A stretch of DNA of 64,000 nt from Saccostrea echinata. Taxonomy: Eukaryota. The stretch is taken from the NCBI RefSeq assembly GCF_033153115.1, contig NW_026889794.1, positions 5,394,001 through 5,458,000 of the forward strand, given 5' to 3'. Each line of letters begins with the position of its first letter. Positions within the stretch are counted from its first letter, which is position 1. This document shows, one piece after another, positions 5,693 through 64,000 of the stretch. Both the position numbers and the translations under genes were made by a program. The notes beneath the pieces were generated by a model that saw only the letters and a list, made by a program, of their open reading frames with translations, ran no database searches and was not told where the DNA came from.

Positions 5693-6299
5693 CCCAAACG
5701 TGAAAAACACCTATTTCGTGGTGGTCTTGGTGGGGTCCACGTTTTCTAGGAGGGGTCCAAAGTCATTTTTTGTTTGCTTCAGCATATACTTTTTATAACT
5801 CGGCAAATTCTGGGGGGGGGGTCCTGACCTAAACCCCCTCTAGATCCGGGCATGGGTAGAGATTACAAAGACAATTAAGATAAGCATATGTTGATAATTT
5901 TGACTTCTATATACAGATTACCAACCACAGGTATAAGTATGTTGCGCCAAATTAGCATAAACTCAAATAATTGAATGTATGGTTAATTATTTGAAGATAC
6001 AATGAATTGGACCAATAATTGAATTTATGTCCACATCAAATCAATTATTGGTCTCATACACTGAATTGATGAGATTAAAGAGAGCAAGAAGATGGGCGAA
6101 CAAGGCGAGCGAAATGCCCACAGTGCAATAAACATGAAGGTGAAAAATTAAATATCAATTATAACAAAAATTCCTAGATCTACCCTTAAATTCCTTGCAA
6201 GCTCCCTCTTTTGTTGACGGGTTAATATCGTCGTTTCTAGTAACCCCTTTTCAGTGATAAACTCTCTATACAGGAAGTCATCGAAGTTTCGTTATTGAC

Positions 6300-6923
6300 A
6301 TGGAAGATTATATCTCTCGTCGAAGAATTACACACAGTTTAGATGATGAGTATAGCATCTATGAGAGAGAAATCAGGGATTCAGATGTAGTGATTGATAA
6401 AACAACTCAGTCTGAAAAATATACAATAACAAAAAATCGCAGTTCGAATGCCCGCTGTAAGTATGTGCTCGTTCTTGCTATTATAATTATAGGGACGACG
6501 TTGTTGTATCATGTTAGCGATTTAACCAATAGATTGGACGTAAATTTTAAGGCCATTCCGTTACATGTCCCAAGAGTTGTTGAGGAAAATTCTTCAAGTC
6601 CATCCGTAAATCCCGATTTATTTTGGGGAACATACAGAGCTAATTTGTACTTTGGTTTAAAAACTCGATCCCCTACGTCACCAGTATTTGGTTTGATGTG
6701 GTATGAACAATACCCTGACAGGGAAGAACAAGTATACCCCAACATAAGACATTGGTGTGAGGAAGGAGACGGCATCAGATATGGATGGATAAGACATGAC
6801 AGAGTGAATTTTGGTATTCATCGAATTGTTGAAGATAACTTCGCCTTTGAGACATCGTTCGTGAAAAAAGCAGGCGGTCTACATGGAGGAGACTGGACCG
6901 TACGGATTTCAGGAGAGTCAAAG
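6300..6923 (+). CDS. MOGS: MOGS-like glucosidase I (GH63), exon 1
   Basis: N-terminal RRR, a type II TM helix (YVLVLAIIIIGTTLLY), and the motifs LFWGTYRANLYFGLKTR, GLMW, IRHWCE and HGGDWTVRI. Phase-0 donor AAG|GTACAT. Confidence 0.9.
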
Positions 6924-7110
6924 GTACATACAATATAAAAGTGGTAGTATATTGGTACACTAAGATGTTTCACAGACAGGAATTAAAAGGCAAACGTACA
7001 GACAGAAAAAAGAGGGTCAGATTATTTATTTTTAGGCCAGTCAAGGACAGATTATTTATTTCTAAGATGACCGGGAACAGGTTATTTTAAAACATTTTTA
7101 AGGACAGATC

Positions 7111-8029
7111 TAGGGATGTCAACGAGTACCCGGTTAACCGGGTACTCGATCGAACGTCCGAGTATCGAATACTAAAATTGGTACTCGGTTACTCGGATGT
7201 ATATTTTTCTTATTTCAAAGTATATATTTTTATCAAAAATTTATCAAAAATAACTTAAATAAGCATACGGTAAATAACGTGTCGTCATCCACACCTGTAA
7301 AACACCTGTTATCGCCTGTGGCTGTGTACATGTATATATACAGTAATTAGTGACCAATCACCTGATACACGGCTGTTCTCACCTATTGTTGTCCTTAATT
7401 TTTGAATGGCTTCAATGATTGTTTTCATTGTACATCGTTTAAGTATGGTCTATTCTTTTTTCAAATCATTTTTAAATTATTTACTTAATATATGGCAGCG
7501 AAATTAGACATGCATAGAAATGCCCTTGCCCACTTCAAAAGTGAAGAAATATTTAGAAATAACGAAAGATTAAAAAAAATATTGAAAGTCAGTTTGCTAG
7601 TAGGTTTAGTGTATACCGTGGAAACAACCAACTTATGAAAAAAATATTAGACTAGCGATCCCAACAACGTCCTTCCTTCACTTTCCCTACTTTAATCATC
7701 ACAAACCTGCGTAACAGATTGTCCTCCTTTTGCGTTGATCAAATAGATTCTAAACAAGAACTGTAAACCATTTGTAATTTTTGATGTATAAATTGTGTCG
7801 TTTGTGTTCATTTGATAAATAAATTTAGTACCAAAAAATAATTTCCGTTGGAATTTATGTTTATATATGTTTATAAACGTGATAAAACCAGCTTTGGGGT
7901 TTGACAGCGCTTAACGTGGCTCAAGAAAATTAACATACTTGTATTACATTTTTACCGAGTACCCGGGTACTCGATCGGAAAAACGTCCGAGTAACCGATT
8001 AGCAAAAATTGACCGATCTGACATCCCTA
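7111..8029 (+). mobile_element. Non-autonomous hAT element in the MOGS intron
   Basis: TIRs TAGGGATGTCA / TGACATCCCTA and a perfect 8-bp TSD GACAGATC (7103-7110, 8030-8037). Subterminal GAGTACCCGG/GGTACTCG repeats. A remnant of the hAT C-terminal dimerisation domain (LIITNLRNRLSSFCVDQI../ILNKN) lies at ~7692-7761. Confidence 0.9.
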
Positions 8030-8705
8030 GACAGATCATTTACAAAATCTGTCAGCCCCCTTTCAGAATCAAATGTTCGTCTCCTTGTAGCCACGAAATA
8101 ACGTTCTCACGAATACATAACTTTTTGGTTGCCCACGAATATTGACCACCCACGAATTAAAATGATTCCACGGTATATATACACATACACTAATTTCCAG
8201 TGCCGGTAAAAATTCAAAATTTGAGGAATCAGTAATGTTCATTTGTATTTTCATTTTTCTTTTATTCATTTGACCCATTTGAATGACAATATGCCCTTGT
8301 TTTCGGCCTGTACAGTAGGTTGTGTGATCTATGATTAGATATCGACAAGGTAAATAAAATGAAGTGAAAGAATTCACACTCATTTCTGATATCTTTTCAA
8401 GAACCAGAGACATGGTTTAGAGAAAAGAGTGTGATTGCATCTATATGAAAGTCTTCTGTATATGTTTTTTACTCCATGTATTTAGTTTAGCTTGCAGGTT
8501 TAAGTGCAATTCTTCTTGCAATCGAGGGAGTAAAAGTCTAAACGAAAGTAAATGAGTCGAAAAACAGCCTTTGTTCAGCTGGCCTCAAATTTGACTTCTT
8601 ACACTTGGGCCATCATAATTTTTTTTATTTGAAGTATTCCAACCCATATTTTTCAAGGTGGGTAAGTAGGTAGGTTTTTTTTATTTTTAGAATTAACTAA
8701 CTTAA

Positions 8706-8864
8706 ACAATAAAAATAATGTCTTTCTTTGGTTGTTAGTATGGGGATTAATGTTGCAGAAACAATACGTAACCCGCTTACGCGGGTTATGTCCCCCCTCC
8801 CCCCCCTGCAATACCTGCAACGTTATTTCCCATACTTACAACCAAAGAAAGACATTTTTATTGT
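8706..8864. repeat. Foldback mini-element
   Basis: Imperfect inverted arms of ~50 bp (ATGTCTTTCTTTGGTTGT / ACAACCAAAGAAAGACAT) with a central hairpin TAACCCGC-TTAC-GCGGGTTA. Confidence 0.75.
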
Positions 8865-9534
8865 ATATATTTATATCTGTACAAATGATTATCTAAAGTA
8901 GTAGTAAGTAAATTAAATATTGTATTATTAATATGCACGTCATTGTACGTCTAATTGATGGAAGAGCCACGACTAAGAAATCTGTATACAGGTGATATGC
9001 TTAGCGGTTTTTACTGACTAGAAAACGACAATGATTTCTAAAGAAATAAAGAGGAAATATTCAATGGAATGATAATCACAGATTTACACCTTTATTCCTT
9101 AGATGATTCTCACCTACTCTTTATTTCCCAGGCGACATCAATGTTTTCTTGTTCTTTTTTTAGCTGTAACCCTTCCCCTTTAGATATCTTAGACCTGTTC
9201 TTAACCTATATATGTATACACTGGTCCATTGACCAAAGTTCTGTATACTCAATAAAGCATGAAATTGAGATCCGTGCATTAAGTAGGCCTGGGTATAAAG
9301 CGCGCGTGGTTATCGAATTGCTGAAGTTCTAGTGCTATGGCATGGAACATGTGCTTGTAGGACTTGTGCTAGAATCATGTCATACGGGCAATCGGTTTTC
9401 GTTTGCATCGACATTCTCGCCCTAACCATGATACTTCATTCATCAAAGAAAGAGGTCGTACAGGGCGAGGACAACCCCCCGCTCTGAGACAAGAGTTTTC
9501 GTCTGACGTATTTTCCCTGCGAGTTACTTTCCTT

Positions 9535-10018
9535 GGCCAATGTGTTCAAATCATGCCCCTGGGGTAGGGTGTGGCCTTTATGGGCGAACAGTTTTACATG
9601 GGTATATACCGGAAAAAATCTTTAAAAATCTTCTTCTAAAGAACAGCAAATCCTGAGAAGTCATATTTATATGGAAGAATCTTAAGATGGAGTAGATTCA
9701 AGGTTGTTAAGTTTGTTATAATCATGACCTCCGGGGATAGGGTGGACAGCAATGGGCAATCAAAGTTTTTCGTAGAATCTTTAAAAATCTTTTTCTCAAG
9801 AACAGCAAAGCAATAAATAGTCATATGAATACAGAATCATCTTCTGGTAGTGTAGATTCAGGTTTGTTCAAATCATGACCTCCGGGGGACGGGGTAAGGG
9901 GGCTATAATGGACGATCAAAGTTTGTTTATAAGAAAACATAGGAAGAATCTGCTGATGAAGAACAAGAAGGGCCTTAGTTACTCGGGTGAGCATTGTGGC
10001 CAATGAGCCTCTTTTTTA
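9535..10018 (+). mobile_element. Degenerate Helentron-type (HINE) remnant with ~165-bp satellite units
   Basis: Repeated AATCATG(A/C)CC..GGGG units. The 3' end TTACTCGGGTGAGC..GGCC..GCCTCTTTT resembles the end of the element at 59223-61661. Confidence 0.6.
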
Positions 10019-10450
10019 GTTATTTCATTTACATGATTTATCAGGGTGAACACTTACAAATCTTTGCAAGTGTAAACATTTTTGCTGCATTGGGGATTCT
10101 TTAATTTTGAGCCTTTTTTTTCTAGTTTGTACATGGAGTATTTCATCCTCTACTTTACTTTGATGTATGAAATGGGACAGAGGGTGATAGTCAATTAATT
10201 GATATAAGGACAGGGCCATTTTATGCATAAAGTGAACCTAGCTCTTTCATTAATGTTTTATATTCAAAATCATGAATATTCATAAAATGTGAATAGAGGA
10301 TAAGCCTACACTCTGTCTTTTTTGACAAGAAAACGTGATAGGTCATCAATATTTTTTCTAAATTTGCCACCTTTTCAATGTGAAATTCCCAGTTGAAATG
10401 GTTCAGGACCAAATAGGGCTAATTAAGCCACTTTTTTTTCTTTTCTGCAG

Positions 10451-12271
10451 AATAAACGATACCCATCTACAGTGTCTTTCCTAATGTATATTGCGCTGGA
10501 TGGGCAAGGAGACCTGAAACCATACATTGATAAAGACAAAATTAAATACATCGAAGGACAGACTGATGAGCTCGATAAATTTCGCATCACATTTTCCGAA
10601 GTAAAAAAATCTTACAGCTATAAACATCACTATCTTGCAAGTGAAGTCACTGATTTTGTAGAGCTACAATCAATGGTAAAAAACAATCTGATAGTCGACA
10701 GATTGCCTTATAAAGGTAAAATTGTGGTATTGAAAAACCAAGAGCCTGATGATTTTCCAAACTTTGTTGTGCACCAGGTAACAGTAGAATTGCCATTTGA
10801 ACTCGAGGTTATATACGAATCTGGTAGTTTTCGGTTTTACAACGAAAGATTAGAAGGCGATGCTTATACAGCAGAACTTTTAAAGTAAACAAAAAGATTT
10901 GATTCAAGATTTACAGATACATTTGATCGCATTTTACAAAATTACAAATCTGATGACATAAATTTTGCCAAAGAAACATTAAGTAATATGTTAGGTACAA
11001 TAAGTTATTTCCATGGAACTTCTTTGGTTAAATCACAACACGACACTGAAGTTGATGAATATTGGCCTACTTCTCTGTACACCAGTGTTCCCTCAAGATC
11101 ATTTTTCCCTAGGGGGTTTTTATGGAATGTTGGATTTGATTGTCAACTGATTTTCCTGTGGAACAAAACAATTTCAAAAGAGATAATATCTCATTGGTTA
11201 GATCTTCTCAACATGGAGGGATGGATTCCACGCGAGCAAATATTAGGTGTTGAAGCAAGAGCAAAAGTACCGGGAAAATTCCTAGTTCAAGAAAATCATA
11301 TTGCTAATCCACCCTCTCTGTTTTTAACGATCCAAAACTTTTTAGCAGATGAAAGTTACGGAACAACAATTTTCTTGGAAAAAATCTATCCGAGACTGGA
11401 ATCTTGGTTCAACTGGCTTCATAAAAATCAAAAGGGTGGTGAATCTACAACATATTACTGGAGAGGACGAAACAGTACAACTGACACAGAACTTATTCCG
11501 AAGACTCCAGCTTCAGGGCTTGATGATTATCCAAGAGCATCTCACCCTTCGCCAGATGAACGGCACCTAGACTTTCGATGTTGGATGGCACTTGCGTCTA
11601 ATGTACTAGCAAATATTGGAAAACGCTTAGGAAAAAATATACATAGGTTCAAGGTTATTTCACAAGAGTTGTTTGACAGCACGCTCTTGGAGAAATATCA
11701 CTGGAATCAAGAACAAAAATCTTTCAACGACTTCGGACTTCATACCAATGCAGTTGAACTGGATCATAAAAACTGGACAAGGATAGTTTATAGAGAACCT
11801 AAACTAAAATTTCTGGAGTCTTTTGGATATGTGAGTCTATATCCATTGATGCTAAGAATTTTAGAACCCGATTCATTACAACTGTCTAACATTCTTTCGG
11901 ATGTAACTAACAAGGAACTCTTGTGGACAGACTATGGCCTTCGATCACTTGCCAAAAATTCTCCATTTTATCAGGTTTGGAATACCAAAGATGACCCCCC
12001 TTACTGGCGAGGTTCTGTATGGATTAACTTAAACTATCTCACACTTAGCGGTCTATATCATTATGCAAATATTCCTGGGCTGCATAAAAAGATGGCCCGG
12101 GATGTTTATAATCAGCTTAGGGTTAATCTAGTTAATAATATGTTAAAACAGTACAGAGAGACAGGTTTTGTGTTCGAATATTATGACGACACAACGGGGG
12201 TGGGAAAAGGTGTTCATCCTTTCAATAGTTGGTCTTCGCTTGTTGTTAATATTATTGCAGAAAAATACTAG
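10451..12271 (+). pseudogene. MOGS: MOGS-like exon 2 with an in-frame premature TAA (10886-10888); a pseudogene, null allele or sequence error
   Basis: The acceptor ttttctgcag|AAT is in phase 0. ORFs 10472-10888 and 10988-12271 share one frame, and the bridge (TKRFDSRFTDTF...FAKETLSNMLG) is MOGS-like. Motifs: PSRSFFPRGFLW, GWIPREQILG, SGLDDYPRAS, PPYWRG, FEYYD. Confidence 0.8.
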
Positions 12272-12788: not shown

Positions 12789-12899
12789 CAATCTGATTAA
12801 AATCAGATCCTCGATGCTCCTTTTTTAACGATATGTCGCTTTTCGTAAGCGACATATCGTTAAAAAAGGAGCATCGAGGATCTGATTTTAATCAGATTG
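12789..12899. mobile_element. Perfect 111-bp hairpin MITE with a 10-bp TSD
   Basis: Perfect 53-bp arms (12789-12841 and 12847-12899) around the loop TTCGT. TSD CAATAGATAT at 12779-12788 and 12900-12909. Confidence 0.9.
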
Positions 12900-15814: not shown

Positions 15815-17285
15815 CACGTTATTACTGGTGACGTAAATATTATATAGTTAATAATGAGGACCTTAAATCATTAATATTAAAAGGGCCAAAATTTAGGGAA
15901 CCCCGATCTTTTAACTGGCGTCATAATTTCATAAATGTTATGGATTCTGTGGAAGATTACGCCAGGCGGTGGGCCAGACATGAAAAAGAAGACCTGGACA
16001 CATTGTCAGAATGGATTAAATGTATATGTATAATATCTCGCATTAAGCGATTGAGGGGCAAAATGAAAACCAACTATCCTTCTGTGTTCAACAATTTAGA
16101 AGTGAAAAAAGAATTAAATAGATAACACGATCAATATGTACTGGTTCCTGCTGACAAAGCGGGTAAAATCATTCTTTGTTTGTAAGGCTCATTATTTAAA
16201 TTGTATGTTAGAGGAACTGGAATTTAATTCTACAAGTGTTAATCCAACTTATACCCATAGCTCCCATTCTAAGGAGTAAATTCTTCAAAATCATATGTCG
16301 GTTTCGAATATTTTTAATATTCCTAACAACCAACATGAATTTGAATAACCATATCTATATTGGATTTCGAAACTTCATAAAAATCTTTACAAACAAAGAT
16401 ACATAACGGGTTCCAGTAAATGTTCTACCAAGCCTCTTTCTTTACTCATCAGTAAAATATTAATAGTAGTGAAGGAGAAATATATTGGAATTTCCATGGG
16501 TACGAATTGCGCCCCGTTATTAGCAGACCTATTTTTGTATTCATATGAAGCAGAATTCTTTCAAAATCTTATAAGTGAAAAGAAGAAAACACTTGCTGTG
16601 GCCTTGAACTCAACATTTAGATATATCGAAGACGTATTGTCAGTTAACAATGGATATTTTCATTCTTATGTCGATACGATACACTAGTATCCCGGTGAGC
16701 TTGAAATAAAAGATACCACAGATTCTGACACATCTGTTTCATATTTGGATATTTTACTAGAAAAAGACGTGATGACTTTAACTTTTCAATCCAACTTTCC
16801 TTATGCAGCAGTATACCTTCATCACTTGCATACGGGGTTTATATCTCTCAGTTGATTCCATACGCAAGAGCATGCTCTACGTATGAACAATTTCTTAAAC
16901 GAGGTAAGTTATGGACAAACAAGTTGATGAAAGAAGGATATCAGCAGTCTCGCTTAAAGCCATTATTTCGTAAGTTCTATGGTCGATACAATGACCTTAT
17001 CAGCGAATACAATCTATCATTAAGTCAAATGCTGACTGACGTTTTTCATACTAATTGTTAGGCCATTATTTACACACTGAATTGTCGACGGATTTTTCCG
17101 TTATTTCCCGATCATGACAAGGAGCACACGGTGGGTGTGACCGATCGGCAGGGGATGCTCACTCCTTCATGGCAACTGATTCCACCTCTGATGATTTAGA
17201 GGTCCGTGCTTGCTCAGCTCCAAAATTTGTATTGTGACATGGAATTTTGAGCTTGAATACTGTTTGTAATCTCCATATATTTCAT
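15815..17285 (+). mobile_element. Degenerate Penelope-like retroelement (RT ends without a C-terminal endonuclease; Naiad-like)
   Basis: Fragments HVITGD..LKGPKFREP, LVPADKA, LYWISKLHK, GISMGTNCAPLLADLFL and FRYIED, with stops and frameshifts. Internal deletion between VKEK and IGISMG relative to the copy at 22769-24479. Confidence 0.85.
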
Positions 17286-22179: not shown

Positions 22180-25100
22180 ATATATATATAGTCTTGTAAT
22201 GTTAACAACACGTACCCCCTGGTTGTGAACTGATATACACATGATAGGATTTGATAGTATCTTTTGCATCAGTAAACTTATTGGTCCAATTCACCATGAA
22301 AGCTGCTCCTTCCTTAACATAATCCTGGTCTTTCATACCACTTTCCATCATTTTTTCACTAACCTACATTTACCAGAAGTTTAAAAAAAGCTTATTCTGT
22401 GAAGAGCTTTAATTACTGTTTTATAAAAGTGCACACAATAAATGCATCTAAATTCATTTCATTTCATTAAAACTTACAGAACTTCCAAGAATATTCATCA
22501 CAGATGGCTTTCGGGTTGAGATAATTACCCCATCGGATTTAAATATCGCAAAAGTGTTTTGGTCATACCATGCTTTCACGAAAACTGAATATGACACCCT
22601 TTCATCCAGAAATTGACCTACAAAGCAAATATTTTTCATCAAAGAAATGACAATTATAAATATTATGTAATTTCCCCCTTTCTTGTGATACATTACTTGA
22701 ATAGAATATTAACCCCCGTCACAAATATAGACATTGAAGAAGACTGTTCATCTTTATTTTGTTGTGAAATGAAATATATGGAGATAACGAACAGTATTCA
22801 AGCTCAAAAGTCCATTAAACAATACAAAATAGTAGCAGAGCAAACACGGACCTCCAAACATCAGAGGTGGAATCAGATGCCATGGAGGAGTGAGCATCCC
22901 CTGCCGACCGGTCACACCCGCTGTGTGCCCCTTGTCATGATCGGGAAATAACGGGAAAATCCGTCGACAATTCAGTGTGTAAATAATGGTTTAACAATTA
23001 GTATGAAAAACGTCAGTCAGCATTTGACTCAATGATAAATTGTGTTTGCTGACAAGGTCATTGTATCGACCATAGAACTTACGAAATGATGACTTTAAAC
23101 GAGACTGCTGATATTCTTGTTTCATCAACTTGTTTGTCAATAATTTACCTCGTTTTAGAAATTGTACATACGTAGAGCATGCTCTTGCGTATCGAAATAA
23201 CTGAGAGATATATACCCCGTATGCAGGTGATGAAGGTATATTGCTGCATAAGTAAGGGAAGTTGACGATTGAAAAGTTAAAGTCATCACGTTTATCATAA
23301 AGCTTGGTTGTTAGATTACCATTAACGTCTTTTTCAAGTAATATATCCAAATATGAAACAGATGTGTCAGACTCTGTGGTATCTTTTATTTCAATCTCAC
23401 CAGGATATATCGTATCGACATAAGATTGGAAATAGCCATTGCTAATTGACAATACGTCGTCGATATACCTAAATGTGGAGTTGAAGGCCACGGCAAGTGT
23501 TTTCTTCTTTTCACGTACAAGATTTTGGACAAATTCTGCTTCATATGAATACAAAAAAAGGTCTGCTAATAACGGGGCGCAATTGGTACCCATGGGAATT
23601 CCAATAGATTGTTGGAAGACCTGGTCTCCAAAAACCACATAGATATTGTCAATAAGAAACTCAAGCATCTTTTAAATGTCAACTTCAGAGTACTTGTGTG
23701 TACAATCAGAATGTTTTTTAACAAAATAATTTTGCAAATGACCAATGACAATGACAATAAGTATATTAACGAGATCCATTTTTATTGAAAAAGCAGCTGT
23801 CAACGATATCAAAAAGCCTGGACTTTAATTTATCGTGGGGAATGGTTGTGCATAAAGTTGAAAAGTCGTAAGTTTGTAAGCTGTTGATTTTGGTAAAATC
23901 TTGTGATTTCAAATTTTCCAAAACTTCCTTGGAATTTTAAAGTATCCACATCTGACTTACACCACTTCTCGAATATATTGTTGCACAGTACTCTTGAAGT
24001 TTCTCCTTCACCACTGTTAATATCTTAGTGAGGAGTAAAGAGAGAGGCTTGGTTGAACATTTACTGGAACCCGCTATGTATCTTTGTTTGTTAGGATTTT
24101 TATGAAGTTTCGGAATCCAATATAAATATGGTAATTCAAATTCATTTAAAAATATTCAAAACTGACATATGATTTTGAAGAATTTCTTCCTTAGAAAGGG
24201 AACTATGAGTATAAGTTGGATTACCACTTGTAGAATTAAATCCAAGTTCCTCTAAAATACATTTAACATAATGAGCCTTACAAACAAAAACAATGTTGTT
24301 ACCTGCTTTGTCAGCAGGGACCAGTACGTACTGATCATGTAATCTATCTAATTCTTTTTTTCACTTCTGGATTATTGAATACAGAAGGATAGATGGTTCT
24401 CATATTGCCCCTCAATCTTTTAATACGCGATTTTAACATACATCTGATACATTTAAACCATTCTGACAAAGTGTCAAGGAACACAAATTCAGTTACATCA
24501 CCTTTGTCTGTGGAAAATATAATGAAGTTGTTTTGACCAGCGTCGTGCCACACTCTATCCTTTTCTAAATTGAAAATTCCAGAAGGTTCGTCACCGTCTG
24601 TGATACCTACACTCCACTGATACCTATAGAAGAGCATGTAAAGTAGAAATTATCAGCCTCATCTCTTTTAAATCTACCATGTTCAACTTCATCAGAAATT
24701 TTACTGAGCACATTGTTTAATTGTTCTCTTTAGCTTATCTAGAAGAATATTACTAATAAAATTCAAAATTGCATAGTGTGGGGCTATATACAAGTACCTA
24801 TAAGCAAATCTACTAAGATTAAGTTAATTTTTTTTAAAATTAGAAAGTGGCTTACCAAAGAGGAGGATTGCCTTGTCTTTGTATGATTGACCATCGACCT
24901 TGCAGAATTGTGTTTGTTGGTGTATATGCAATATCTTCACTTCCATACATAACATCATTAACTTGCAACAGATTGTTTGGATTCCCTAAGAATATGTATT
25001 AAAAAAAAGTAACATCAGGGTATAAAAAAGTCTTATTTCAGCTACGCGAATAAGTTTAATTCAATGTAAAACTGAATCTGAAGAGAGGGTACAACAAAGT

Positions 25101-28100: not shown

Positions 28101-31100
28101 GTCAGCGGAGGAAGTCCCATCTATTACCATGCCTACGTTTGGCGGACTGTTGTCCATTATGACACCATCGGAAACAGCCATAGTGCATAAATCAGCCGTG
28201 TTACATGCAGTTACCGTAGTGTAGTAAGTTAATCCAGGTCCAAAATGGACAAAGTCAACTGTTAGATCTGTATTCAAGAACATATATAATTTTATTATTT
28301 TCCACAACTACGTTACGGTATATAATTTTGCCCTGCACAGATAGATGCTGGCGATATGAGATACGCCAACATTCCCTTCGCTTCCAACAATATATGCCCG
28401 GAAAGCAGGGGTAACATACCTTTACCCTAACCCAAAAGGAGAATGCTTTAACATGAGAAGAAAATTAAACAAACTTGTAAACTATAAAAAAAAATGATAT
28501 TCGGGAAAGAAGACCGTTCTATGTAGTTGTCATCTTCCTTGCATGCTACCATGGGTTACTAACGGTACTTGAAAATGTCCCGATTTTTATGAGATCAATT
28601 ACATATTATATGAATTTCTTGAAAAATCCCTGCATATCTTTCTCTATGGTTTCTGTGATTTTTTTTTTAAATTTTCCGACTTTTTGATTGACGATTTTGT
28701 GCACAGTAAAATGTCTACACGTAATGTTGTCGGCGCCAGTATGTAAAGAGACAATATATGCCGTAACACACATCAGGTACATTGGAATATTAAGTCTATT
28801 ACCGATCTTAAAGATTTTATAATGGTTGAAAAGTTCTTCTCGTTTACAGAGGTCCTTACAAGCACTCACCAGTTGCCCTTGTGGCGCTATAGTTAGAGCG
28901 TTTGCTCTAGAGTCGCGGAGTAAGGAGTTGATCGTTACGTCGCGGGTTCAAATCTCCCACTGCGGGATGTGGAGACCGGTCCCACGGATGAGACCGTATA
29001 AACCGAGGCCCCGTGTTGCAGCAGGTCCTGGCACGAAAAAGATCCCTTACTGCTAAATGGCCCTAAGTTCCGACTATAGGTCTAAAATTTGCAGCCCTCC
29101 ACCGGCAAGTGGTGGCATCTCAATATGAGTGAAAAATTCTCGAAAGGGACGTTAAACAAACAAACAAGCACTCACTAACCATTGACAAGTCCAACGCTTT
29201 GATAGCCGATTACATCATCACAATGCAGGCATGTTCCAACAGTGATGAAATATTCTTTTATTGAAGAGTGAGGTTCGTAAAATCCTTCCCAATATACTTT
29301 TAATATGGACATATCGGTCTGGAAATCTATATCCATTTTACTATTTCCTGTTGGAGAAATGTCCAGAACGTGTCCCTTGGTAGGAGGTGATAAGTCAACA
29401 GTGTACGCCCAGGACGTTGCTACTGACATCAAATGGGCCTTATTGAAAGCCTAGAAAGTAAATAACTACGTATATATCATAAATAATCAAAAAACCATTA
29501 GATCAAGCCCATGTATCCAATCCAAGAGTACGATGCAAAAAAAAATCCGAATTTCTAAATGTAAAAAAGAATGATTCTCACTTTTACTGAAATGAAATAA
29601 GCATGTCCTTCTGTAATGTTTAAAGGCTGGCTTTTGTTGTTCATTCCACAATCACTATCTACTCTAGTGAAATACATTACATCGAAATGACCAGGTTCCG
29701 ACCCTATAGACCACATGAAATAATCCATGCCACTCTCTGGATCACTGAAGACATCATTCCAACTGTAAAGATGTCAAAGGTCATGGTCACTTTTTCCTTC
29801 TCCAATATACCAATTTCTATAAGTTGACTTCAATGAACTTTAAATTTTAAACATATTTGATAATTTTTTGAATTCTGCTTAATTAATTACAATTGTTAGA
29901 TGACTTTATCAAATAATGTTCATAAAATAGACAAAGTGGAAAAGAATTCTAAAAAGATAGTCAGGTTAAATCTCAATTTATTAGGAAAACAACAACAAAA
30001 TACAAATAATATTTTAAATATTGTTATTTGACTAGGACGTTTCTTTTGTGTAATGCTATGAATTTATTAAAGTTCATTGGTCTATTTTCCGTGGAATTTG
30101 TGGATACCTTTTACCCATCAATTTACAACCTCCAAGAAAGTGATTCCTTTTTCAACATGCATATGATATTCACCTACGAAATAATGTCTTTACCAACCTG
30201 AAAGAATCTTACCAATCCACAAAAATTGGCTCGCGCGAATTTCAACAATTCTCTGTTATTCCGGATATGTGTATTTTTCAAGAAAATAATGGGGTTGACA
30301 AAATTCTTATTCTTCAATATACGTATCGTCTTTGAAATCTTAACATCACTTTGTACTAATGTACAAAATGTAACAATAGCCCTGTAATGTGAATGACGTG
30401 AACCAAAAGCACCAAAGTACCTTTCATATGCTATTAATAAAATTAAATTCATTCACCAAACTTATTCAAATCTAATTAAGGACCCCTTTAGACACTGAAG
30501 CAAAATGTTTTTGAACACTGAAATAATTATATTGTACAAAAGTGTTGAGCTTATCTATTTCATTTACAACATAGGGTGCCTGGCATTTACCCGAGTAAAA
30601 AATGTTCAAAGGCAAAACGAAGTATTGATGAACAGAAATTAGTAATGTTTACTTAACTGGGAAAAATGCAGGCAATCAAAGTGTTCAGATAATTTTATTT
30701 TGGTCTATTGAAATGTTAAGAATACATGAAGTGATTACTTAATATACTCTAGATTTCAATTTATTTTAGCTTAGATATAAAGGAAGATTATTCTAAATGC
30801 TTAAAAGTTGATTCATCTTGAGAGTGCTGTGTATAGTGTGTTCATTAGACCTCTGTAGCTTTTTTGTATTGTTATACTTTTAAAAATTGTTTCTTATATA
30901 AATATATACTGAAACGTCTAACATTTTTCAGTGTTTATCTGAGCGGTCAAAAAAATCGATGTTGGGCCTCTGAGTGACATATTGGACCTGTTGATGAGAT
31001 ATTGGGCCGATATGATGTTTTTATGTTGCCTTGTAGGCGAAATCAGCTATATCTTATGCGTTATTGCAAACATAGAAGCCAGTGCAAATAATATGTCAAA

Positions 31101-62001: not shown

Positions 62002-64000
62002 TAATCTATCTTTAGATAGCGGGAATATTCATAACGCAGTTGTTCAACTGATTTATTATTAACAGTGTATTTTCCGACAATGTGTGAACGTAGCGACTTT
62101 TACCAATTATAGGCTTGAGTTTCTCGGACGTTTTGTCAGAACATGTATTTATACTAGCTTAACCAGATGACACGATCTTATAATCTTGACCGTGACGGTC
62201 AATAAAACATTTTTCTTGCCAAATCAGTTGCCTTTGCATGGCATTTGCGATGAAAAAGTATTTTCTTTGACAGGATTAAAAGATATTTTTGTTGCTTATT
62301 ATTCAAGAGAATTCCGTCAATATTAGGTAAGATATGATGCTAGTACATCTTTTCACAGAAGATAACTGCTTTGATTAATTAAAGATTAATATAGTACTGT
62401 GTAATTTGCAATCTTTATCGTGGCTGCCATAGTCTTACTAAGAAATTTCCTGTACAACTTTTTAGATCCTTCAGTAAGTTGGAGCTAGTGTGAATAGAAT
62501 AAAATTGTTGTGTACGGAGATTTCAGAATTCAAGATCATCATATTTCAAAATCTAATCAATCATATGGGAAACGATATTTTTAAAAAAGGATGCTGTGAA
62601 ATCAATTTGGTAAAACAAATGTTCGTTATTAAGCCATTAATTGAAATCTCACCTGTAAACATGCAGCAGTGATAATTTTTTGTTCTATTACACAAAATGT
62701 TTACACGAAATCACAAATACTAAGGCAATAGATCAGTCTTGAATTTCTTGTCTTGAACTCGTACGTAAAATAACAATTTATTGTAGAGTGAATACATAAC
62801 TTCATGGCGGATTCCACTCCGTCAGGATTAGAGCATCTAATTCAAAAATTTTTAATATAGTTTCAACTAAATTAAATAAAAACTTGTAGTGGAAACGACC
62901 AAAAATTGTGTTATGGTTAATTGTCTACAAATTGTAAAAGACTTACTAGGTTTGTAAAAGTCTTCACTTCTTATTCATCCCTTGAGAGTTTGATCCTCTG
63001 CGTCCAAAATGCCCGCGCAATATATCGAAACGGGTGAAATAAAACGTGGTAGGGATTCTGAAATAACACATCTGCCGTTGGGATAGTAAGTTGATACTTT
63101 TTGCTTTTTTTTTTATCCCAAACAAGTGCTAAATGATAATGTTAGATTAAAAACTAAAAGATAATCTGCATGGAATGTGGTCTAAACGCTGAGGTTAACC
63201 TTGCCTCTTCGGACATACAGACGGGTGGACAGCGAGACAGACAGATGGACAGGGTGATTTCAGTGTACCCTCCCATACAAATCTATTGCTATGTGACTGA
63301 AAGGAATTCTTTCAATGAACCTTGATTCAAGACGCTTTGAATATTGAGTACATCCCAAGCAATTAGGAAGGTAATAAATATCTCCACATGGCAAAATAAA
63401 AAAAAGTTATAATATAAAATAATAATAATAATAATGAAAAATAATGAAAGCGTTTACCTTTTGTCAGTTGCAGACCATTAATGAAGTCGTAAATTCATGA
63501 ACATTTGACTCTCCTAGAGTGAATATGCTGATCACAGAATAACTAAAAAATAACAAAACATAACGTTTAATTAATTACAATAAATAATCAATTAAATATA
63601 AATTGATGAACAAGGCATTAATTTCACTCTTTTGATAAAGTAGATACATGTATACTACACCAACAATAAGACAATTTGATCCAAAATTCACAAAAGCGAT
63701 ATCTATTATCTACACATAATTGTTTATGATTGATTTGATCAAATCCTATGCAAGTTTAGTAAATATTTTTAGATTGTCTTCTCTTCTACTTACTGGTTTT
63801 TTTGTTGTATGTGTAAAATCTCGATCAGGCTTTTGTCCTCTTTAACCACTCTTTTTGCTTCTGTGCAGGTAAAATGTTGCACCACTGCTCTTGTGCATTT
63901 CCATGAAATAAAATGCATGCGCAGTATGTTTCGTGATGAAAAGACACTGAAGGCTTTAAATATCGTGCGAATGGTTTGCCACAACGTATTTTCTTATAAA

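Follow-up and report, generated by a model that had tools for sequence, protein, structure and literature searches.

The window analysed here is a 64,000-nucleotide stretch of Saccostrea echinata DNA, to which all positions given without a locus name refer. On its minus strand, positions 461-1489 hold a linker histone H1 open reading frame followed by a histone 3′ stem-loop (461-506), and on its plus strand the coding segments of a glycosyl hydrolase family 63 protein (glucosidase I-like) extend over 6261-12271. Its repeats include, at 12790-12898 and 54157-54261, a long, almost perfect MITE-like hairpin and a 30-nt tandem that contains an inverted symmetry; a tandem array of a 168-bp unit in about 7.6 copies at 59984-61417; and at least five fragments of a second dispersed repeat family (28892-29174, 45815-46090, 48338-48507, 53467-53669 and 61784-62018). 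Our subject is an RNA motif at the 3′ ends of Penelope-like elements (PLEs) in this window.

Naiad copies and their 3′ motif

Five motif copies had been noted in the window, and all five were recovered by BLAST and by a covariance model (R1). They are variously decayed 3′ ends from a single repeat family; their likeness to one another therefore indicates common descent only and is no proof of structure. The first copy, at 15993..17285 on the plus strand, is a 5′-truncated and decayed Naiad element that consists of reverse transcriptase (RT) fragments with an internal deletion and a 3′ UTR, as recognised by self-BLAST to the second copy and by translation, and its 3′ end lies at 17285 (+). Its motif occupies 17122..17215 (+), about 60 nt past the ORF stop at 17061, within an R1 match at 17119-17232 (+, 71 bits). 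The copy at 17120 is a decayed relic: helix E is broken once, as is palindrome 1, and palindrome 2 carries a C-to-U substitution (see below). The second copy, at 22769..24479 on the minus strand, retains the DKA motif, the RT core up to a stop and the 3′ UTR, has no C-terminal endonuclease, and carries its motif at 22838-22932 (R1 match 22821-22933, 79 bits). The third, an old copy at 46164..46449 on the minus strand, has lost the 5′ third of the motif, namely helix A, helix E and palindrome 1 (46166-46270, 31 bits). The fourth is an extreme 5′ truncation at 49465..49637 on the plus strand with an intact motif at 49475-49568 (49472-49585, 92 bits), and the fifth, also on the plus strand, is the decayed 3′ end of an older subfamily at 58568..58738 (58568-58682, 45 bits).

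The suggestion that the motif is also inserted on its own did not hold. What looked like a standalone copy at 49465-49637 comprises an element's final 173 nt, including a normal 3′ end, and is an ordinary 5′ truncation. Moreover, all 30 copies picked by pattern from the genome run on upstream of the motif for 20 to about 1,500 nt, as a continuum, which rules out independent mobility of the motif. Genome-wide, a 21-base gapped core pattern has 6,722 exact matches, and its reversed control has none; a search for further families in the same genome yielded 19 decayed variants only.

The host element, originally predicted to be a PLE, fits the Naiad definition of Craig et al. 2021 (PMC8557442). 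The translation of the second copy contains an RT with PADKAG (the DKA motif), then a stop, and no C-terminal endonuclease after it; an N-terminal GIY-YIG domain lies near residues 130-240 in five of six long homologues scanned; and a tandem in the oyster's own genome (L324), made of two 3.3-kb Naiad units head to tail, has CSC (the CxC linker motif) and DKA in the same domain order. Combined with 5′ truncation and partial tandems, these are the characters given for Naiad_Sglo and Naiad_CGi in the relevant passages of PMC8557442: an N-terminal GIY-YIG, CxC, DKA, a C-terminal RT, a length of about 3.3 kb and partial tandems. The window element's 3′ UTR is closest to the oyster consensus Naiad_Sglo in that paper, and the motif is present in the published consensi of both Naiad_Sglo and Naiad_CGi, whose host element is of the same type. 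There it goes unremarked, and the passages of PMC8557442 at hand describe no structure at its place. The motif begins about 60 nt past the ORF stop and finishes about 70 nt before the fixed 3′ end of the element. A coding role for this region is ruled out, as it lies 3′ of the stop and varies by indels across families.

A pseudoknotted fold with two palindromes

To compare structure across divergent families, relatives were chosen by their RT protein alone, as the best 80 of 552 metagenome loci, and their 3′ UTRs were then read. Alignment A2 contains 18 distinct motif sequences, from 14 of the RT-picked loci, two loci of the oyster's own genome and two prokaryote assemblies; it excludes loci nearly identical to others and two copies that are truncated or heavily decayed (L048, L049). 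Adding four minimal-variant loci gives a set of 22 sequences. From 5′ to 3′, the motif runs through helix A, CGGGUG, a 10-nt palindrome, 1-2 nt, CAR, helix C and GCUNAC, and then through 2-4 nt, a second palindrome, CACCYG, the C partner, hairpin D and the A partner.

In the first copy, all on the plus strand, the 5′ strand of helix A, the closing stem, lies at 17127..17131 and its partner at 17204-17208. Next to it, at 17132..17137, is the 5′ strand of pseudoknot helix E (CGGGUG in the family form), whose CACCYG partner is at 17173-17178, followed by the variable, loop-less palindrome 1 at 17138..17147. The conserved junction CAR (17149..17151) precedes the 5′ strand of helix C (17152..17156, partner 17179-17183), which crosses helix E, and a second conserved junction, GCUNAM, follows at 17157..17162. 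Palindrome 2, of 6-8 nt, is at 17167..17172, and the length-variable hairpin D is at 17184..17203. Among the 22 sequences, CAR has its C in 21 and its A in 22, while GCUNA has G in 21, C in 22, U in 21, a variable position and A in 22; these fixed, unpaired residues are set among freely covarying helices.

This structure pairs 95.5% of 468 cells in the 18 sequences, and 19 of its 26 pairs show changes on both sides. The covariation score is 0.664, compared to 0.287 when the sequences are shuffled and at most 0.161 when they are slid. Covariation was counted on 18-22 related sequences, without R-scape, and these counts are not p-values, because the structure was derived from the same sequences and these are related. 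Four helices covary strongly. All five pairs of helix A are changed on both sides, all five pairs of helix C covary with 97.8% paired, four of five pairs of hairpin D covary, and palindrome 1, taken as a helix, covaries at all five of its pairs. Unprompted, RNAalifold returned A, the palindrome arms, C and D; a GC/GC stem that it also proposed is ruled out, since several families have A instead of G. Pairs of the G-U type outnumber A-C mismatches by 44 to 9, or by 29 to 9 once a fixed wobble is removed, and it follows that the sense RNA is the folded strand. Folding of single sequences did no better than shuffles in six of six folds (z from -0.92 to +0.29).

Helix E, which pairs CGGGUG with CACCYG across helix C, rests on fewer changes. 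Among the 18 sequences its changes are all one-sided; in the set of 22, pairing holds in 129 of 132 cells, with U-A to G-C in four, G-U to G-C in four and C-G to U-G in six. Its double change comes from one clade of four sequences, and helix E is consequently less certain than A, C and D. That clade is the minimal variant, found at four distant loci (L103, at 1410-1510, L104, L105 and L109) whose RTs are 45-47% identical. The variant has a G-rich helix E, an 8-nt palindrome, CAA, GCUSAA and an A-rich linker; its second palindrome is missing and its hairpin D is nearly gone.

The structure first proposed for the motif pairs 84.1% of cells, and its parts fared unequally. The closing stem and the ACCUCU/RGAGGU hairpin survive as helix A and hairpin D, and all of its double changes lie in these two. 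The inner stems CAGG/CCUG (none of four pairs with double changes, 83-92% paired) and UGC/GCA (none of three) fall away, as does a pseudoknot between GGA and UCC, which is 50% paired with double changes at none of its three pairs. The actual partner of the GGA strand is the downstream AUCCC, in helix C. The first proposal also overlooked the two palindromes, the true pseudoknot and a twister-like fold that occupies the same place in other families.

Palindrome 1 is represented by 16 distinct 10-mers in the 18 sequences, and every one of the 18 has four or five of five possible Watson-Crick pairs, compared to 0.7% of 1,905 control 10-mers. Its central pair covaries as well, and 98.9% of its cells are paired with the central pair included. 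A central pair is impossible in a hairpin, and its retention therefore points to an RNA dimer. Predicted energies agree, with a median of -15.9 kcal/mol for the self-duplex and 0 for the hairpin. Palindrome 2 adjoins CACCYG in 17 of 18 main-type sequences; it looked invariant in the fetched loci, but published Naiad consensi differ there, reading UUUCGAAA, UGGUACCA, UGGCCA, UGUCGACA, CCUAGG or CCAUGG. From these patterns, the motif likely forms dimers; most simply, its two palindromes would give a pair of intermolecular helices that hold the dimer at one and the same end of helix E.

Known ribozymes and exchange with a twister-like fold

No Rfam family matches the motif, whether in the window, in 20 loci or on short inputs, and this result, combined with the covariation across divergent families, bears out the original prediction of an uncharacterised cis-acting structured RNA. 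We conclude with high confidence that the motif is a real RNA fold, ancient or widely spread, that has not been described. The literature searched holds no description of it, and supplements, Repbase notes and subscription journals beyond that search may contain one; a term search of PMC10085705 and PMC11662667 returned no passages on palindromes, molluscs or oysters.

The remark that hammerhead and SECIS cores are missing also stands. None of the 22 motifs holds both CUGANGA and GAAA; CUGANGA occurs in one and GAAA in three, at unconserved places, with non-circular permutations included. The SECIS quartet RUGA/GA with an apical AA pattern is found in none of the 22, and SECIS_1 is unmatched on the motif. 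Separately, SECIS_1-like matches lie just 3′ of the Naiad ORFs at L080:1691-1751, L082:945-1005 and L072:1044-1106, and in L082 and L072 a twister-like fold follows further downstream. Pistol, hairpin, hatchet, glmS and VS families have no Rfam match on the motif at E up to 10; pistol and hairpin patterns occur in none of the 22, while VS and hatchet were judged from Rfam alone. HDV-like ribozymes of non-LTR retrotransposons have crossed helices in common with the motif. A G-U/G-C pair near the start of the first helix is shared as well. However, the motif has no Rfam match to them and lacks P3, P1.1, P4 and the J4/2 catalytic C between the two 3′ strands, where its linker is 0 nt (the 3′ strands of E and C are contiguous in 21 of 22), and the HDV-like ribozymes lie in the 5′ UTR, whereas the motif lies at the 3′ end.

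Two kinds of 3′ structure alternate among the relatives. Of the 80 RT-picked loci, 19 have the motif, four the minimal variant, 22 a twister-like fold and 35 neither, many of the last because the contig stops too soon. The two kinds are never found together in one 3′ UTR; in L044 the motif is confined to the opposite strand, about 1.4 kb downstream. The twister-like fold contains GAGG, UAA and a UNCCAAGN loop closed by a stem, and has one or two palindromes, variable in sequence, in the P1 region of all 18 parsed loci. It lies in the 3′ UTRs of L040, L044, L057, L058, L062, L064, L069, L072, L075, L078, L081, L083 (3369-3435), L085, L089, L092, L094, L095 and L106. One such locus has every core residue of Rfam Twister-P5 and matches it at E 0.0025, scoring 23.4 bits against a gathering score of 37.6; a second gave no twister match in the Rfam search. 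The fold is visible in five published bivalve consensi. By eye only, the 3′ end of the ctenophore consensus Naiad_Mley also looks twister-like (GAGG, palindromes, UUUAA).

Twister type P5 (RF02684) in other Naiad families thus shares with the motif its place, its retrotransposon clade, variable palindromes and a short YAR strand that follows the palindrome, and three of the helices come in a similar cyclic order. In contrast, the motif has no GAGGG and no UNCCAAGN loop closed by P4, is unmatched in Rfam, and keeps no T2 pair across its families. A loose L4 pattern occurs in four of the 22 motifs, at unconserved places, and the twister GC/GC pair does not survive in sequences whose second palindrome has a final A. 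The related RTs that bear a twister-like fold are 61-62% identical to the window's RT. In the RT tree, two twister-bearing loci are nested in the motif clade (support 99/93); AU tests on 41 rows, with unlabelled and duplicate rows dropped, did not reject a tree that places them outside it (p = 0.14 and 0.066).

The motif is found in 12 of 54 published Naiad consensi, scored by eye and unaligned: two from Clytia, five from bivalves, four from hemichordates and one from a fish, which was assigned from its place in the consensus file. For Chlamys and Hydra, the three stretches of the published consensus files covered here contain no instance. A twister-type pattern has no match in the oyster's own genome, and viral contigs gave no motif pattern match and no hit in an RT scan. 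Six pattern matches were found in prokaryote genomes, of which four have no helices and two (L142 and L143) are full motifs. L143 is a 407-nt contig nearly identical to a published pearl-oyster Naiad tail, and is thus probably host DNA in a prokaryote assembly; both full motifs probably have such an origin.

Proposed dimer-gated cutting and its alternatives

We examined 30 of 93 element 5′ starts, and all are at the same junction. In twenty-nine, the element's own 3′ end comes immediately before the start, and the resulting pseudo-LTRs measure between 11 and at least 1,483 nt (18 of the 29 exceed about 120 nt); the thirtieth carries only a few tail bases. In the two-unit tandem L324, three in-register copies of the motif are present.

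The exchange with a twister-like fold at the same place, the palindromes and the true pseudoknot shift the odds from the original alternatives of RT recognition or a ribozyme toward a dimer-activated ribozyme. On balance, we favour the reading that the motif is a dimer-activated self-cleaving ribozyme of undescribed fold, which would cut out unit-length RNA for circular reverse transcription. By analogy with its counterparts in other PLEs, self-cleavage is fairly probable; that it constitutes a new ribozyme class is a possibility against which we lean slightly. Because Naiads insert as head-to-tail partial tandems, a transcript started in an upstream pseudo-LTR would contain two copies of the motif at a spacing of 3.3 kb. 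Joined by their palindromes, these would fold the active site, and both would be cut at the same position, releasing a unit-length RNA that would then be circularised. On this circular template, the element's RT would begin about 150 nt downstream of helix E, always at the same point, and proceed over a varying distance; 5′ truncations, full tandems and pseudo-LTRs of whatever length would be the products. The five copies in the window, like other lone copies, would be inactive. A circle is proposed because cutting a linear RNA would separate it from the tail at which cDNA synthesis begins, and pseudo-LTRs longer than about 120 nt could not arise from it. In minimal dimeric PLE hammerheads, stem III is palindromic, the ribozymes work as dimers and circularisation has been proposed (PMC4209133, PMC6765202). 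These hammerheads (Cervera and de la Pena 2014, PMC4209133) have the same pseudo-LTR/3′ UTR position, a palindrome in place of a hairpin, and a likewise proposed dimer-gated cleavage and circular template. In contrast, the motif has no CUGANGA/GAAA/UH core, adopts a pseudoknotted four-arm fold and has two palindromes, of 10 and 6-8 nt.

The tandem layout fits internal priming with template jumping on uncut RNA as well. A candidate cut site may be placed between 17160 and 17161, from likeness to twister sister only (see below). Three raw RNA-seq runs, unstranded and oligo-dT primed, contained no site where many molecules begin or end; they consist mostly of passive 3′ fragments from a related organism, with a depth of 500-1,500 over the motif and less than 10 at the ORF start. 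The 5′ breakpoints of 128 young copies picked by their tails (98 from the first 100 of 1,913 matches, and the first 30 of 399) do not pile up at a single base, and one copy starts at the candidate cut site.

The strongest competitor, which we nonetheless consider unlikely, is a non-catalytic element for dimerisation and RT binding. The pseudoknot would dock the telomerase-like RT and set the start of cDNA about 150 nt downstream, while the palindromes, by holding together two RNAs or both ends of a single one, would make template jumping and pseudo-LTRs possible. The fixed 3′ end of the element alongside its varying 5′ ends would fit such docking, as would the sequence conservation of helix E, which recalls protein-bound or triple-helical pseudoknots, the sister relationship of PLE RTs to telomerase RT (PMC8557442), and the absence of a cut site from the RNA-seq runs and 5′ breakpoints. 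However, the RTs that are 61-62% identical manage without the motif and have a twister-like fold in its place, and a protein-binding site would be hard to swap for a ribozyme fold.

A somewhat less probable proposal, contained within the favoured one, is that the motif is a ribozyme but not a new class, being a rearranged twister-sister-like or twister-derived fold. The cyclic order of palindrome 1, C and E corresponds to that of twister's P1, P2 and T1, but twister's L4/P4 and general-base G have no counterpart in the motif. The likeness to twister sister and TS-like ribozymes (lantern, PMC11620745) lies in the junctions. That paper gives loop strands GCAAG and GCUCAU and a base before the cut that tolerates substitution; the corresponding strands of the motif are (G)CAR[R] and GCUNA(C/A), where the tolerant position, just before the A, is the only one in GCUNA that varies, and the minimal variant reads GCAAG..GCUSAA. 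Of the 22 sequences, 21-22 retain each of C, A and R and of G, C, U, N and A. However, the first G is present in 16 of 22 only, one core pair is not kept (the required G-C pair is A-C in four of 22, because that base pairs in helix C), and Rfam is unmatched even on short inputs. Nor do two stems flank the loop: covariation puts a single helix C strand between the two junction strands, with no stem on the other side, and the motif's strands are linked by a 3-4 nt pseudoknot strand. The likeness thus offers a lead for the cut site rather than membership.

Compact 3′ UTR pseudoknots act as stability, 3′-end or translation elements in other RNAs. That the motif is such an element (a decay blocker or terminator aid), dimerising incidentally, is improbable; 5′ truncations are somewhat denser in the motif, as a stable fold predicts (52 nt hold 21 of the 128 breaks, some being internal deletions), but two obligate palindromes and the exchange with a twister-like fold would be left unexplained. 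Least probable is a DNA-level element, either part of a pseudo-LTR internal promoter or an endonuclease/cruciform site: PLE pseudo-LTRs do contain promoters (PMC6765202) and dimeric proteins can bind palindromes, but palindrome 1 differs between families, the long-range helices covary with an excess of G-U over A-C on the sense strand, and pseudo-LTRs of 11-107 nt are without most or all of the motif. Covariation already largely refutes this reading.

Returning to the dimer-activated ribozyme, natural small self-cleaving ribozymes comprise only about a dozen known classes (12 according to PMC10761166), and a new self-cleaving class from animal genomes would be a notable addition. In the passages concerned, canonical hammerheads are absent from Naiads, and Craig et al. 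read this absence as a sign that ribozymes may merely parasitise PLEs (PMC8557442). The presence of either a twister-like fold or the motif at the same place, both with dimer palindromes, argues instead that dimer-gated cutting belongs to PLE replication. Tentatively, and with the balance slightly against it, the motif might represent a new structural ribozyme class, an obligate dimer through two intermolecular helices, interchangeable with twister and hammerhead in PLEs, and at least as old as the cnidarian-bilaterian split or since spread across phyla. Unit-length cutting would then be a general step of PLE replication, and at about 95 nt the motif makes the role of dimer-gated cutting testable. 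Even without cutting, it is an undescribed fold with unusually clear evidence for a two-helix dimer and thousands of copies in the genome.

Two further observations concern the element's ends. The units of L324 (G000:C1:52976300-52984200) share an in-frame stop and frameshifts, with an inverted motif copy at one end, which fits repeated copying of one template or local duplication. Just past the pseudo-LTR junction, CTGCTGGTGGA..CCCCGAGG is conserved, with 93 matches in the genome (L111-L140 near 1501; L034:1947-1973; L038:1629-1656); it is common to many published Naiad 5′ ends and may be a promoter, priming or splice element.
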